Virus genome (UHGV): UHGV-0135335
Length of the DNA: 24,559 nucleotides
Origin: a virus
Strand: one strand, 5' to 3'
Part shown: positions 6,138 through 22,951 of the stretch, in pieces
Layout: the number at the start of each line of letters is the position of its first letter
Numbering within the stretch: position 1 is the first letter of the stretch
Made by a program: the position numbers and the translations under genes
Notes under the pieces: model-generated
What the model was told of the DNA's origin: nothing
The model's database searches: none
The model's input: the letters and a program-made list of their open reading frames with translations, nothing else

Positions 6138-6485
6138 ATGGCTGGAAAATCTAAAAAAGATGCCGGTGCAGACACCACAACTTCCGTTGATGGTGGTGAT
6201 GCGATTATTGATACCGCCAATATTGTCGACGGTGTGATTTCTGCTGATGCGATCACCGGTGATGAAATTGGGACCGTGGTCCCAGCGGTTAAATCCGCGC
6301 CGGAACGTCGCGCTGTTGTGTTCCTGGGGCCATATCATCGCTATTCGCGCGCTGATGTCGCTGCATTCGATGCTGAATACGCTGAAGAGCTGGTTACGCG
6401 CAAAATTGCAGCCTGGCCAGAAGATGCGAAGCGTGCGTTGAATCCTCGTTGGGGAGACGATGACCATGAAACCGACATTGGATGA
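6138..6485 (+). CDS. Hypothetical acidic protein (Asp/Gly/Ala-rich N-terminus)
   Basis: ATG 6138 with GGAG at 6127-6130. 115 aa. Contains palindrome copy 2 within its coding sequence (EIGTVVPAV). Confidence 0.5.
   Translation: MAGKSKKDAGADTTTSVDGGDAIIDTANIVDGVISADAITGDEIGTVVPAVKSAPERRAVVFLGPYHRYSRADVAAFDAEYAEELVTRKIAAWPEDAKRALNPRWGDDDHETDIG
6269..6284. other. Putative SopB-binding centromere-like palindrome, copy 2 (TGGGACCGTGGTCCCA)
   Basis: 16-bp inverted repeat inside the 6138-6485 ORF. Confidence 0.7.
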
Positions 6486-12736: not shown

Positions 12737-12762
12737 CCTCATCCCCCCACACCCCCACAAAC

Positions 12763-12784
12763 CCCGCTCTGCGGGGTTTTTTGT
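12763..12784 (+). terminator. Rho-independent terminator after lipoprotein moron
   Basis: CCCCGC-tct-GCGGGG stem followed by TTTTTTG. Confidence 0.8.
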
Positions 12785-12786
12785 TA

Positions 12787-12804
12787 TTGGGACCATGGTC
12801 CCAA
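12787..12804. other. Putative SopB-binding centromere-like palindrome, copy 3 (TTGGGACCATGGTCCCAA, perfect 18-bp palindrome)
   Basis: Intergenic, lying between the moron terminator and the gpL Shine-Dalgarno sequence. Confidence 0.7.
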
Positions 12805-14935: not shown

Positions 14936-17900
14936 ATGGAAATTACAGGCGCAAAAGGTGGCGGCGGCAGCGGAAGTAGCGATAAAGGCGAGAACCGCGG
15001 TACCGAGATCGCTTCAGTTGCTTACATGAAGATATTACTGGCGCTGACCGAGGGGGAAGCCGCCGGCGGATTCTCAGGCCAGGATATTTATCTCGATGGT
15101 ACGCCGCTGCTGGATGATTCCGGGAATGCAAACTTCCCAGGCGTTACCTGGGAATGGCGTAGCGGGACTGTCGACCAGCCATATATTTCCGGCTTTCCTG
15201 CTGTAGAAAATGAAGTGGCCGTTTCTACGGAGCTGAAGTACGGGACGCCGTGGGTTAAGTCGATTAACAACACGCAGCTCTCAGCCGTTCGTCTGCGCCT
15301 GAAATTCCCGAATGGCCTGTATGAACTGCGAGACTCAGGTGGGAAGAGTGGTTATACCGTTGAGTTTGCCATTGATATCTCAACTGATGGCAGTTCCTAT
15401 GTCGAATACGGGCGGGATACCGCAAGCGGTATTGCTAATAACGGCTATGAGCGTAGCTATCGAATTGAGCTGCCACCGGCGCAGACTGGCTGGCAAATTC
15501 GCGTAAGACGCCTTACACCAAACGCCAATGATGCCCGGCACGCCGATACATCCCGGATCGAATCGATAACCGATATCGTTGATGCCAAATTGCGGTATCC
15601 CCATACCTCGCTGCTGTTCGTCCAGTTCGATTCTCAGTTGTTCGATGGTCGTACGCCGACAGTAACGATAAAAATGAAGGGGATCATCGTTCGCGTTCCA
15701 TCGAACTATGACCCGATCAACCGGACGTATAGCGGTACGTGGGACGGGACGTTTAAATGGGCATGGACGAACAACCCGGCCTGGATTTTTTACGACATCG
15801 TGACGAATGCCCGGTACGGCCTTGGTCGCCGCATAACGACAAACCTCGTTGATAAATGGACGCTCTACCAGATTGCTCAGTACTGCGATGCGAAGGTTTC
15901 TGACGGCGCAGGAGGCACAGAAGCGCGTCATCTTTGTGACCTGTACATTTCACAGAGAACCGACGCCTGGACGGTCCTGATGGATTTGGCGGCGATTTTC
16001 AGGGGGATGATCAGCTGGTCGAATAATCTGCTTTCGCTTGATGCCGATATGCCGCGCGAGCTGGACCCGGACTTTGTCTTCAACAAGTCCAATATTGTCG
16101 GTTCGTTCAACTTCTCCAGCTCATCCGAGCGTACCAACTATTCTGCGGCGATAGTGACTTACAGCAACCCGAACAACGGCTACAACGATGATCAGGCCAG
16201 CGTTCACGTACCTGAAGTCTCTTCGCGATTTGGTTTCAATACGATGGAAATGACTGCCGTCGGCTGCACGCGCGAGAGTGAGGCGCAGCGCCGCGGGTTG
16301 TGGGGTATCGAGACGAACCGCGATGATAATGCGGTTGAGTTCAAAACAGGCATGGAAGGCCGTATTCCGAGGGTTGGCAAAGTGATCGGCGTGAATAACG
16401 CACCACTGGCCGGACGGGCGAACGGTGGCCGTGTAGCTGCAGCTGCAGGTACAAAAATCACGCTGGACAGAAATACCGTTGCCGTTCCCGGTAATCGCCT
16501 GATCATCAACCTGCCGACGGGAAAGGCCGAAGGACGAACGATTAAGTCAGTATCTGGCCGCGCGGTCACTGTGGAATCTGCATACAGCGTATTACCTAAC
16601 GCTGAGTCGGCGTGGGTAATTGACCAGCAGGATCTGGCCATCCAGTTATTCAGGGTTCGCCGTGTGGCCATCGGGAGTGATGACCTGGTAACAATATCCG
16701 GGTTGCCCTATAACCCGAACAAATTCGCGAAAATTGATGATGGCGCGATTGTCGAAGACCGTCCTGTGACCGTGGTCCCACCTGGTAGCCAGTCTGTACC
16801 AACGAACATTGAAATCACCAGTGAATACCGAATTGTTCAGGGGATAGGTATAAACACCCTGGTCGCGACATGGGACCCGGTGATAAACGCCATCGCCTAC
16901 GAGGTGCAATGGCGCCAGAATAGCGGCGACTGGATTAATGCAGGCAGGACAGGAAATACCCGAATTGAGGTCGACGGTATTTATGCTGGCCGTTATGTCG
17001 TCCGCGTTCGGGCCATCAACGCGATGGATGTTGCCTCGGTATGGGCAGTATCAAAGGAAGTCCAGCTGGATGGAAAAATCGGAAAGCCGCCCGTTCCTGT
17101 CAATTTGAGAACAACCCCGATGCTATGGGGTATTCGTATTGACTGGTCTATTCCCGCAGGAGCTGAGGACTCGCTCTATACGGAGCTGCAGTATGCGCAG
17201 GAACGCGACGGCAATACGGCGCTATTGCTGAGCAATATTCCATATCCGCAGTCCACATATTCACAGATGGGCCTTCGTGCAGGGCAGGAGTTCTGGTATC
17301 GGGCGCGTCTTATCGACAAGATAGGAAACCCATCGGACTGGACTGGATGGGAGCGCGGTATTTCAAACGATAACTCAGGTGATTATCTGGAGGGGATCGG
17401 TGATGGTTTCCTGACCTCAAAAGACGGTGACGCGTTGACGAGTCAGATTGACCAGAATATCGAGGGGATTCTACAAAATGCGCAGGCGAATAATGCCACC
17501 ATCGATCACCAGTGGAAGCAATATGGAGAGGTTCGCGCTGATATCCTGATTGTCAAAACGACAATTGCCGATGTTGATAAAGCGATGGCCGAGCTATCGA
17601 CGACAGTTCAGGCCCAGGTTGATGATATTACGGCCACGCTGGAAGATAAACTGACAGCGGTTGTCGATGCTGATGGCGCCTCAGCAATTCATACGCTGAA
17701 AGTCGGCGTAAGAATTGGCGACCAATATTATGGTGCGGGGATGTCCGTTGCTGTTATTGCGGATGCTGGTCAGCCAGTAATAACCAGAATTGGATTTAAC
17801 GCAAATCAGTTTGTGCTGATGAGTGGTCTGGACGATAAGCAATATTCACCGTTTGCAGTGATTAACGGTCAGGTATTTATCAGTAGCGCATTTATTCAGG

Positions 17901-18148
17901 ATGGCACAATTACCAATGCCAAAATTGGTAATTACATTCGAGGCAATGATTTTGTAAGTGGTGTTAATGGCTGGAATATTCCCAAGGATGGCACCCCTGA
18001 ATTTAATGGTGGCATTTTCCGTGGTGCTCTTTATGCATCATCCGGCGCATTCAGCTTTAACGGTGTGAATAATACTGTTGTGTTGAATGGTAATGGTGTG
18101 ACTGTAAACCTTCCAAACGGTGGCCGGATCGTTCTCGGCACATGGTAA
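14936..18148 (+). CDS. Host specificity protein J (central tail fibre / tip protein)
   Basis: 1070-aa ORF. The N-terminal 350 aa align by eye with lambda gpJ (for example VRVPSNYDP..RTYSGTWDGTFK versus lambda QVPSNYNPQTRQYSGIWDGTFK). The C-terminal region is divergent. Confidence 0.9.
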   Translation: MEITGAKGGGGSGSSDKGENRGTEIASVAYMKILLALTEGEAAGGFSGQDIYLDGTPLLDDSGNANFPGVTWEWRSGTVDQPYISGFPAVENEVAVSTELKYGTPWVKSINNTQLSAVRLRLKFPNGLYELRDSGGKSGYTVEFAIDISTDGSSYVEYGRDTASGIANNGYERSYRIELPPAQTGWQIRVRRLTPNANDARHADTSRIESITDIVDAKLRYPHTSLLFVQFDSQLFDGRTPTVTIKMKGIIVRVPSNYDPINRTYSGTWDGTFKWAWTNNPAWIFYDIVTNARYGLGRRITTNLVDKWTLYQIAQYCDAKVSDGAGGTEARHLCDLYISQRTDAWTVLMDLAAIFRGMISWSNNLLSLDADMPRELDPDFVFNKSNIVGSFNFSSSSERTNYSAAIVTYSNPNNGYNDDQASVHVPEVSSRFGFNTMEMTAVGCTRESEAQRRGLWGIETNRDDNAVEFKTGMEGRIPRVGKVIGVNNAPLAGRANGGRVAAAAGTKITLDRNTVAVPGNRLIINLPTGKAEGRTIKSVSGRAVTVESAYSVLPNAESAWVIDQQDLAIQLFRVRRVAIGSDDLVTISGLPYNPNKFAKIDDGAIVEDRPVTVVPPGSQSVPTNIEITSEYRIVQGIGINTLVATWDPVINAIAYEVQWRQNSGDWINAGRTGNTRIEVDGIYAGRYVVRVRAINAMDVASVWAVSKEVQLDGKIGKPPVPVNLRTTPMLWGIRIDWSIPAGAEDSLYTELQYAQERDGNTALLLSNIPYPQSTYSQMGLRAGQEFWYRARLIDKIGNPSDWTGWERGISNDNSGDYLEGIGDGFLTSKDGDALTSQIDQNIEGILQNAQANNATIDHQWKQYGEVRADILIVKTTIADVDKAMAELSTTVQAQVDDITATLEDKLTAVVDADGASAIHTLKVGVRIGDQYYGAGMSVAVIADAGQPVITRIGFNANQFVLMSGLDDKQYSPFAVINGQVFISSAFIQDGTITNAKIGNYIRGNDFVSGVNGWNIPKDGTPEFNGGIFRGALYASSGAFSFNGVNNTVVLNGNGVTVNLPNGGRIVLGTW
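16765..16780. other. Degenerate SopB-type palindrome (TGTGACCGTGGTCCCA, 15 of 16 match)
   Basis: One mismatch at position 3 relative to copy 2. Lies inside the J coding sequence. Confidence 0.35.
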
Positions 18149-20490: not shown

Positions 20491-21672
20491 TCAAAGTATG
20501 TAGCGCTTGTTTATTTCATCGGCAATTTTCTTAATCCGCTCATTTTCAGTAGCTTCATCCTTCAGCACGGTTCTGGCGAACGGGATCAGGGCCAAAATTT
20601 CGTTGGCGGGAATATCGTATTCCAAGCCTGTAGCCGCAGCACGGATGTAGTTGGTCACATCATTAATTTCTAAAAATGCCTCATCCACTGCTTCACCAAC
20701 CGATTTTTGCTGCTCGGCCTGGTGAGCTTCCAGCAGTTCCTCAATCTTCTGTACTAACGCTGGCGGTACGTTGCTCAGTTGGAAGGATACAGAATCCCCC
20801 TTGTACTTCGCTTTTATCCCTTTACCAAACAGGCGTTCACGCATTGCAGGTTTTACTGGTTTTTGCGCCACCTGGTGTAGCTGGTCAAGAATGTCATCGG
20901 TTTCGAGCTGTTCACCAGCACGCTTACGCTTGGCCAGATGCTGAGCAAACGCAAACATCGCCTCTTCATTCTCGGCATAGGCTTTTGCCAGTGCCTCACC
21001 AGCTCGGGCGCTCAGTTCGTTAGGGTTACGGAACAGGCTAATAATTTCGCGTGGTAGCTCTGCCGTCTTCATGCAGCGGACGATAATTTTTCGGGAGATA
21101 TTCTCAGCTTCGGCCAGCTTGCTGACTGTACCGCCGAACTCATTGGCCAGACGGCGAGCATAGCGCTTTCCGCGCTCGTAAGAGCTGGTCTGCCGGTAGT
21201 CGTTCCCGATCTGTGATAGCCAGGCCATTTGTTCGTCGTCCAGCTCGCCGACGAGAACGCGGTATTCAGAGCTGGTGTAAATGGCTGTCTGGCGGCGGCG
21301 GCTACCGTCGGCCACTTCAATAATGCCAGAGATTTTACGGCCAAATGCTGGGTTCTGTTGCCCGGACGCGAGGAATGACGGGATCAGATCATCCAGCGCA
21401 TCTTTTGTCAGCAGTGCCTGGTCTCGTTCATTTCCGCCCCAGACCATGGTCGCCTTTTCCACCATGTTCGCATCGACGGTTTCCAGTTTGAACGACACAT
21501 CCCGCCCACAGACCGGAAGCGTGATATGGTTCCCGGTCATCCCGCGGACGCGTTCACTGAGGTTAGCCACCGCCGGCGCAGCTGGTTTATGCGCGTCATC
21601 ATGGCGTGGGACCGCGGTCACAGTGTCCAGATTGATTTGTGGTGCGTTTTTCATTACTGGTGCGCGTTTCAT
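20491..21672 (-). CDS. sopB: Partition protein SopB (ParB family)
   Basis: From MKRAPV the product aligns closely with F-plasmid SopB as recalled (LPVCGRDV, GNERDQ, DALDDLIPSF, ADGSRRR, YRVLVGELDDEQM, AENISRKII). ATG overlaps the sopA stop (ATGA). About 70 aa longer at the C-terminus than F SopB. Confidence 0.85.
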   Translation of the reverse strand: MKRAPVMKNAPQINLDTVTAVPRHDDAHKPAAPAVANLSERVRGMTGNHITLPVCGRDVSFKLETVDANMVEKATMVWGGNERDQALLTKDALDDLIPSFLASGQQNPAFGRKISGIIEVADGSRRRQTAIYTSSEYRVLVGELDDEQMAWLSQIGNDYRQTSSYERGKRYARRLANEFGGTVSKLAEAENISRKIIVRCMKTAELPREIISLFRNPNELSARAGEALAKAYAENEEAMFAFAQHLAKRKRAGEQLETDDILDQLHQVAQKPVKPAMRERLFGKGIKAKYKGDSVSFQLSNVPPALVQKIEELLEAHQAEQQKSVGEAVDEAFLEINDVTNYIRAAATGLEYDIPANEILALIPFARTVLKDEATENERIKKIADEINKRYIL

Positions 21673-22838
21673 TTGTTGTTCTCCCAGCGAGTAGCAATCA
21701 GGCGATCGTAAATTTCCCGGCAAACCGGCTCCCAGATAGCGACGGCATTGCGCCAGGCGGTAGGCGTGCTACGTTGGTTTGCAGCCTGCTCAAACACGGT
21801 GCGCATGCGTACCTGGCCTTTACCTACTTCGTCTGTTACGCGGACAACTTCCTTCAGCACCATGCCGCCCCAGGCGTTGCGGATCTGCTCATCCATCCAG
21901 GCAGATTGGTTGCCGACGGCTGTGCTGTATTTAGTTACCAGAACGCGGACATCAGGTTCAAAGCCGCCAAGGTCGACGTTGGCCATCAGGTCGCGAAGCA
22001 TCGTGAAGAACTGAAGAGAGGAAACGTAGTCGTACAGTTCAGCTGGTGTAGGCACAACGATCACATCAGCAGCGCATACGACGTTTATTGTGCCTATGCC
22101 GAGGTTTGGGGCGCTATCAATAACAATCAGGTCGTAGCTATCCCAGACAGACTCGATAGCGGCGCGCAGAAGCAGGTGAGATGCCACCGGCAAGCGACCT
22201 TCTTTCTCCAGTACCTCGATCTCTGATTCGATGCGGTGAATGGCCAGACAGGACGGGATGATATCGAGGTTCGGCCAGCAGGTTGGCTTAATCGCGTATT
22301 CAGCGTTATCACGTTCGCCCAGGTAGTACGGCAGCAGCGTATCTTCTGCGTGGATATGCAGATCAGGGACGTAGCCATGGTACAAACTGGCGGTTGCCTG
22401 TGGGTCAGTCGCATCAATCAGCAGAACGCGAAGGCCCTGCAGTGCAGCCCATTGCGCCATATGTACGCTGGTCGACGTTTTGTATGCGCCACCCTTATGC
22501 GCGGCAATAGCCAGTACAACCGGCGATTGGCCTTCAGGTCGAGACGGACGGGTACCAAAGTGATCGCGCATGGAGTTGATTTGCTCGATGGTATAGCCGG
22601 CACGTTGTGGAACGCGACCGCGAGTCACCATATCAGCCGGCGGCAGTCGCCCACCATCTTCTGCATTGCGAATAGATTGCGGTGTAACACCGATCAGCTC
22701 TGCCGCTTCAGTAATGCCCCAGCGGCGAGTGATGGCGCGAGACTCAGGGCTATCATCGCCAAATTGGGCCTGTGCGATAGCCATTGTCATGGCATGGCCA
22801 CGAGAAATCAGTTCATCCAAACGCGATTTTAAATTCAC
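21669..22838 (-). CDS. sopA: Partition ATPase SopA (ParA family, Walker-type)
   Basis: Aligns along its whole length with F SopA as recalled (AAHKGGAYKTSTSVH deviant Walker A, HAEDTLLPYYLGE, VIDSAPNLGIGTINVVCAADV, VFEQA). GTG start at 22838 is preceded by GGAGAG with a 7-nt spacer. The track ORF extends further, to TTG 22913. Confidence 0.85.
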   Translation of the reverse strand: MNLKSRLDELISRGHAMTMAIAQAQFGDDSPESRAITRRWGITEAAELIGVTPQSIRNAEDGGRLPPADMVTRGRVPQRAGYTIEQINSMRDHFGTRPSRPEGQSPVVLAIAAHKGGAYKTSTSVHMAQWAALQGLRVLLIDATDPQATASLYHGYVPDLHIHAEDTLLPYYLGERDNAEYAIKPTCWPNLDIIPSCLAIHRIESEIEVLEKEGRLPVASHLLLRAAIESVWDSYDLIVIDSAPNLGIGTINVVCAADVIVVPTPAELYDYVSSLQFFTMLRDLMANVDLGGFEPDVRVLVTKYSTAVGNQSAWMDEQIRNAWGGMVLKEVVRVTDEVGKGQVRMRTVFEQAANQRSTPTAWRNAVAIWEPVCREIYDRLIATRWENNK

Positions 22839-22856
22839 TTTCGTACTCTCCGGTAA

Positions 22857-22896
22857 CTTTGCGTAAAAACAGTAAAGCACCAAAAAAGACGCAAAG
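22857..22896. promoter_or_regulatory. Putative sopAB promoter/operator: CTTTGCGT ... ACGCAAAG inverted repeat
   Basis: 8-bp perfect inverted repeat with 24-bp spacing, 20-60 bp upstream of the sopA start. The CTTTGC hexamer is recalled as the SopA autoregulatory site in F. Confidence 0.45.
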
Positions 22897-22951
22897 CAAC
22901 ACAATTTATGCAAAATCCCTTAAAAAAAGATTTTCACAATGACAATCACAA

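Follow-up and report, generated by a model that had tools for sequence, protein, structure and literature searches.

A one-mismatch SopB-type box embedded in the J tail gene of an N15/PY54-like phage element is conserved in four lineages

The centromere of the F plasmid, sopC, is a tandem, non-coding array of twelve 43-bp repeats, ten of which bind SopB, placed directly downstream of sopB. Linear phage-plasmids N15 (IR1–IR4) and phiKO2 (four annotated 'putative plasmid partitioning sites') carry single 16-bp palindromic boxes that are dispersed, far from sopAB and in no tandem array. Such boxes can sit inside genes. A box within N15 repA, with one mismatch in the GenBank record, is a precedent for an intragenic imperfect box, and one of the annotated phiKO2 sites lies inside the replicase gene (repA). 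For the N15 box (L001, 33480–33495) the GenBank record reads AGCGACCACGGTCGCA; the IR1 oligonucleotide, in the flanks of the N15 repA box, reads TGCGACCACGGTCGCA (PMC7205306, Table 4). Sites of the F consensus, dispersed over three phage genomes, have also been remarked on (Pillet et al. 2011, PMC3177203). Here we describe a SopB-type box that lies within J, the gene for the tail tip or central fibre protein, in a 24,559-nucleotide stretch of virus genome UHGV-0135335. This whole stretch, hereafter the window, is the virion-gene (late) arm of a lambda-like siphovirus with a partition operon, and resembles N15 and PY54.

The window follows the dispersed-centromere plan of N15, in that it holds sopBA, lambda-like virion genes and five dispersed single boxes. 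It departs from N15 and phiKO2 in the kind of box and in its place: those phages have TGCGACC..GGTCGCA boxes, a SopB recognition helix reading DRN and all four boxes on the replication/regulation arm, whereas the window has TGGGACC..GGTCCCA boxes, an SRK helix and, on the virion-gene arm, five or more boxes that include the one in J. With F sopC it has in common the 16-bp consensus, the rule that the centre be purine-pyrimidine, the tolerance at arm positions 1 and 3 and the base-contact residues of SopB (PMC3177203), but its boxes are single, kilobases apart and, in three of five cases, within open reading frames (ORFs). The closest named homologue of its SopB is SpyB of PY54 (61% identity, both 393 amino acids). 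PY54 has 11 boxes of the window's type, shares with the window the places at the terS/terL junction and at spyB codons 17–22, and has two boxes with a G-to-T variant at position 3: TGTGACCACGGTCCCA at 30984, inside repA, and TGGGACCGTGGTCACA at 41121. In the literature we searched, we found no description of the function of the PY54 boxes.

The J box, TGTGACCGTGGTCCCA, occupies positions 16765–16780 on the plus strand. Checking the sequence confirmed the statement of an earlier, sequence-only reading of this DNA (the first-pass annotation) that the site equals copy 2 (6269–6284, TGGGACCGTGGTCCCA) at 15 of 16 positions. Written as TGTGACC-GT-GGTCCCA, it has a single difference from the F-type SopB box TGGGACC-RY-GGTCCCA, namely T in place of the G at left-arm position 3, and so falls one base short of the full 16/16 consensus associated with optimal affinity. 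The functional core, GNGACC-RY-GGTCNC, is matched with no mismatch at 16766–16779: arm positions 2 and 4–7 are right in both arms, and the centre (G-T) is purine-pyrimidine as required. Judged by its letters, then, the earlier classification as a SopB-type site is sound.

The box falls on J codons 610–615, read in frame as CCT GTG ACC GTG GTC CCA (P-V-T-V-V-P), in agreement with the frame PVTVVPPG that had been given for it. The six third codon positions fall at box positions 1, 4, 7, 10, 13 and 16, where the SopB consensus is matched throughout. A Val codon begins with the central GT, and a conserved Val codon has the deviating T of position 3 as its middle base. A G at that position would put Gly in place of this Val, which explains why the site lacks it. 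The surrounding motif, RP[VI][ST]V[VI]PP, is kept with isolated substitutions only in all of the ~80 J homologues examined, and conservation this strong means that the J protein cannot easily yield at the position-3 Val. The earlier suggestion that J coding constrains the site was therefore well founded.

We gathered J homologues from IMG/VR by protein similarity and, by a second route, collected from viral and metagenome collections all contigs encoding E-D-R-P-V-T-V-V-P-P, using a fully degenerate DNA pattern. As protein similarity and a pattern for the peptide alone are both blind to wobble bases, these were unselected in this sampling. The identical 16-mer stands at the homologous J codons in three further lineages (L007, L027 and L118/L136). 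Among the four site-bearing lineages, J proteins are 71–76% identical, and their genes are near saturation at fourfold-degenerate sites (pairwise identity 0.33–0.44). Identity across all four at such sites is 22/171 = 0.129, from which P is about 4.5e-6 for agreement at six of six wobble bases. The longest run identical in all four along the 2.46-kb alignment is 20 nucleotides (nt) and lies at the J site, the next longest being 11 nt; the Arg codon directly upstream of the box differs in every lineage (CGT, CGC, CGG and AGA). In a neighbour-joining tree the four are separate deep branches and form no clade of near-identical sequences. As judged from sequence comparison, the wobble test, the longest identical run and the recurrence in four lineages mean that selection has maintained the DNA of the J site in relatives with sop genes and/or other F-type boxes.

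The first-pass annotation had proposed looking for a perfect palindrome at this position in related phages. No relative examined has one: each carries either the same 15/16 site (L007, L027 and L118/L136) or no site. PY54 is without the J site because it has no lambda-J-type tail tip gene with the RP[VI][ST]V[VI]PP motif. A 56-nt query around the J site retrieved no J gene from the plasmid collection and unrelated short matches only from the phage collection, and no further lineage came from scanning metagenomes with the pattern built on the peptide.

These comparisons bear on whether the site is a relic, that is, a formerly better or accidental box that is now unused and drifting. Its one mismatch to the consensus would suit such a history, as would the lineages that have F-type boxes and no J site (L002, L022 and L023). 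A drifting site should not, however, be identical in four lineages whose synonymous sites have diverged almost to saturation, and we regard a relic as very improbable. The earlier idea of a decayed copy fails on the same observation, since three other sop-bearing lineages hold the identical 16-mer.

Could the peptide have produced the box by accident? The conserved J peptide is already box-like at codon positions 1 and 2, so that six wobble bases and one Ser-to-Thr change suffice to complete a site that would be a by-product of peptide and local codon usage, with no function at the DNA level. We give this explanation next to no credence. Given the peptide and the codon usage of the window, the six J box codons have a probability of 2.4e-4 in each lineage, with CCT, CCA and GTC being non-preferred codons. 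The window has 3 intragenic boxes with no more than one mismatch; when the codons of all its ORFs were shuffled synonymously, the average was 0.07, and not one of 300 shuffles produced as many as 3. Moreover, among the J homologues examined, the site occurs only in loci with other F-type boxes. Taken at the level of sequence, the J site is neither a chance product nor a decayed copy.

Whether SopB would bind the site can be gauged from work on the F plasmid. F SopB requires arm positions 2, 4, 5, 6 and 7 and a purine-pyrimidine central dinucleotide, whereas arm positions 1 and 3 matter least; changing position 3 in one arm causes a minor loss of binding only, changing it in both arms costs about 7-fold in dissociation constant (KD), and 8 of 20 arm variants in natural sopC arrays are at position 3 (Pillet et al. 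2011, PMC3177203). The window's SopB keeps the base-contact residues of F SopB, namely R190, K191 and R195 (in ISRKIIVRC) and R219 (in ELSARAG), and the J box thus shares its replicon with a cognate SopB whose recognition residues match. Elements with TGGGACC boxes all have SRK (or ERK) in the recognition helix; N15 and phiKO2, whose boxes read TGCGACC with C at position 3, have DRN. In these sequences the pairing of helix and box fits a role of the K191-equivalent residue in setting the preference at box position 3.

Natural boxes show the same tolerance. We took a census of boxes with at most one arm mismatch in F-type phage-plasmid sequences (the window, PY54 and 12 loci; n = 42). Half of them (21) were perfect, and the 21 single mismatches fell at position 3 (17 boxes) or position 1 (4 boxes), with none at positions 2 and 4–7; the centre was purine-pyrimidine in 41 of 42. 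From this pattern, one-arm variants at position 3 belong to the normal repertoire of the family and are no sign of decay, which again argues against a relic: the mismatch of the J box is at a tolerated position, and half of natural boxes are imperfect there or at position 1. The first-pass annotation had also thought the site weaker. It probably is, though mildly, if the minor loss seen for F SopB is a guide: the J box is expected to bind SopB somewhat less well than a perfect box and still specifically, because the sole base that it cannot match is among those that SopB heeds least.

The distribution of the site follows that of sop genes and of the F-type box. Besides the J site, the locus of each site-bearing lineage holds other F-type boxes; one of them stands a short way upstream of gene L, and L007 and L027 have another within their homologue of the window's ORF 6138–6485. 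sopBA is present in site-bearing loci wherever the locus extends that far (L027 and L136). With a relaxed pattern, TGNGACCNNGGTCNCA, the J loci of 25 chromosomal prophages (0.5 Mb), which the scan with J had returned and which served as a negative control, gave no box. Across 57 loci (0.97 Mb) the pattern found boxes in six only, all from three already-known sop phage-plasmid lineages, and 51 had none. A SopB scan of genome contigs returned no match.

The lineage L025, with its many near-identical copies, has the N15-type box TGCGACC..GGTCGCA. Its J keeps the peptide PVTVVP and the left arm CCTGTGACC, while the right side reads GTT GTT CCC, with the wobble bases lost. Such right-arm decay is what one would expect where the site no longer fits the resident SopB, and the fact that wobble bases decay here, where selection should have lapsed, speaks against a relic in the lineages that keep them. 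In N15, phiKO2 and the Enterobacter plasmid pJBIWA007_2, which have the TGCGACC box type on the other arm, we looked for the J site and did not find it. The plasmid has the same J family and gene order, a protelomerase and N15-type boxes, is more distant, and has no boxes on its virion arm.

That the conservation has nothing to do with SopB, and reflects mRNA structure, another DNA-binding protein or a recombination site, seems to us scarcely credible. The J site is an inverted repeat, and a hairpin is possible in principle, yet the surrounding RNA folds no better than shuffled sequence (z = 0.10), on which ground RNA structure was rejected as an explanation. The conserved stretch coincides with the SopB box, with the functional core exact, and the 16-mer is found only in elements that have the SopB box elsewhere as well.

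We consider it likely that the SopB encoded by the element binds and loads at the J 16-mer, and that this functional site is one of at least five single boxes, dispersed over the late-gene arm, which jointly make up the centromere of an N15/PY54-type linear phage-plasmid. We infer SopB binding at the site, and a contribution to partition, by analogy with F and N15. On that model, a SopB dimer would use its recognition helix (R-K-...-R) and the Arg downstream of it to read arm positions 2 and 4–7 and the purine-pyrimidine centre; once bound, it would nucleate a larger SopB assembly on flanking DNA; and SopA would position the SopB complex such that each daughter cell inherits the plasmid prophage. 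The box itself is written into J through six synonymous third positions and a Thr in place of the commoner Ser.

Several observations weigh against this interpretation. Optimal binding by F SopB needs all 16 bp (PMC3177203), so the J site is probably weaker than its perfect neighbours, and as the arm also holds three perfect boxes, it may add little by itself. Only four lineages underlie the conservation statistic, and their independence is approximate because the phylogeny is star-like, and the L007 locus is too short to show sopB. In addition, L002, L022 and L023 have Ser-Ile instead of Thr-Val and no J site, yet they have F-type boxes, from which it follows that the J site is dispensable.

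The remaining boxes of the window place the J site in context. A search with TGGGACCNNGGTCCCA allowing up to two mismatches gave five sites in the window against 0.05 expected from dinucleotide shuffles, and the core GNGACC-RY-GGTCNC likewise occurs at exactly five sites. The J site had been counted as a fourth, degenerate site; the one-mismatch site is real, but it is not the only one, as a second single-mismatch box lies at 21607–21622. Both imperfect boxes have the same G-to-T change at arm position 3, in one arm each and in opposite arms.

Box 1 (574–589, TGGGACCACGGTCCCA) is perfect, sits at the junction of the terS stop and the terL start and is followed by six T residues, with which (574–595) it scores as a terminator-like hairpin; the PY54 box at this junction is at 508 (L090). 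Box 3 (12788–12803, TGGGACCATGGTCCCA), also perfect, is intergenic, directly after a strong terminator-like hairpin (12759–12779) and directly before gene L, and a box just upstream of gene L is likewise found in L002, L007, L022, L023, L027 and L136. Box 2 (6269–6284), the third perfect one, is inside ORF 6138–6485 in the frame I-G-T-V-V-P. The host is a small head-module protein, and the box forms a conserved G-T-x-V-P island in its hypervariable, low-complexity N-terminal region. The place is conserved in L007 (1200), L023 (1308), L027 (1312) and PY54 (L090, 6566), and in L025 (1362) it is taken by an N15-type box, with the peptide becoming A-T-V-V-A. At box 2, the protein sequence follows the DNA site and not the reverse.

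The fifth box (21607–21622, TGGGACCGCGGTCACA) has one mismatch and covers sopB codons 17–22, read as T-V-T-A-V-P on the minus strand, within the poorly conserved 5' part of the gene. A box stands at the identical offset, +50 nt from the ATG, in the window's sopB, PY54 spyB (L090, 22251) and L087 sopB (10051), and in all three one arm has T or C at position 3, never G. This sopB-internal box may be an autoregulatory site or a loading site within the operon. A near-match inside sopB, CAGACCATGGTCGC at 21440–21453, was set aside as probably no binding site, because it departs from the box at arm position 2, which is essential.

All intragenic boxes, those of the window (6269, 16765 and 21607) and two in L086 (7034 and 10490), use one common frame, xxT-GGG/GTG-ACC-NNG-GTC-CCA/ACA. 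The two L086 boxes are position-3 variants and lie in a repeated segment (D-G-T-A-V-T) of a 3279-amino-acid, phiKO2-like J gene, a second and independent manner in which a J gene hosts SopB boxes.

The layout of these boxes also raises the question of regulation. SopB might bind the J site chiefly to modulate transcription of the late operon, through binding or spreading over the tail genes, and thereby silence the operon in the plasmid prophage or aid late expression in lytic growth, as reported for N15 IR2/IR3. Late structural genes contain or flank four of the five boxes, two of which (boxes 1 and 3) are themselves terminator-like or abut a terminator-like hairpin, and the N15 Sop system reportedly facilitates late gene expression. 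The sites behind that N15 effect, however, are said to lie next to Q and the late promoter, with none inside tail genes. Within 350 bp of the J site there is no promoter-like or terminator-like element, and an explanation of the site as either was rejected for that reason. We judge a mainly regulatory role unlikely, although regulation and partition are not mutually exclusive.

Box spacing in the window is 5.7, 6.5, 4.0 and 4.8 kb, which is more even than is usual for random placement; a rough calculation that assumes uniform random placement gives P ~0.005 for a smallest gap of at least 4.0 kb. The PY54 boxes have no such regular spacing. A more speculative proposal, to which we attach a low probability, is that the PY54-like group tiles its transcriptionally silent virion arm with SopB loading sites every 4–6.5 kb, placing them within ORFs (in one preferred frame, xxT-GGG-ACC-NNG-GTC-CCA) where there is no intergenic space, and that SopB coats or condenses the arm, coupling partition to the silencing or timing of late genes. 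If this were true, the J site would close an otherwise 8.8-kb gap.

J itself (14936–18148, plus strand) encodes a protein of 1070 amino acids with 54% identity to N15 gp21 and the Pfam domains FNIII-A_GpJ, Phage-tail_3 and Phage_Tail_Tip (PF24801, PF13550 and PF09327). Pfam matches identify terL, gene L, J, a DUF6453 protein and a fibre protein, and the portal, capsid and tape-measure genes were assigned from homologous annotated records. sopB (20491–21672, minus strand) encodes a ParB-type centromere-binding protein of 393 amino acids with a SoPB_HTH domain (Pfam), the presumed binder of the boxes, which is 56% identical to N15 SopB. sopA (21669–22913, minus strand), for the ParA-type partition ATPase (Pfam AAA_31, CbiA and ParA), is given here as the maximal ORF; its actual start codon probably lies some tens of codons downstream. 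The gene is 69–89% identical to the sopA genes of related loci.

No protelomerase ORF was found within the window, which ends ~1.6 kb beyond sopA. The window begins with GGGGGAGTAAAATCCC and ends AT-rich (...ACATCATACTAATATCG), and no ORF runs off either end; it may span the whole arm, from the cohesive end to the telomere or to the end of the contig. When J and the whole window were compared by Megablast with phage, plasmid and E. coli collections, no close DNA relative emerged, the best matches being head genes like those of Klebsiella phage phiKO2, about 74% identical.

That linear phage-plasmids carry dispersed SopB boxes, some of them intragenic or with one mismatch, is already known. A box that lies within the tail gene J and has persisted in four lineages is a new instance and not a new kind. 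Its value lies in being a clean natural case of dual coding, with a protein-binding site and a conserved protein motif on one 16-base stretch. The two settle by trade-off: the binding site yields at a position that SopB tolerates, and the gene yields at its wobble bases and in one Ser-to-Thr change. For the annotation of centromeres in the 'telomere phages' of Enterobacterales, which are becoming more common, boxes with a single mismatch at arm position 1 or 3 should be counted, because half of the natural boxes surveyed are of that kind.

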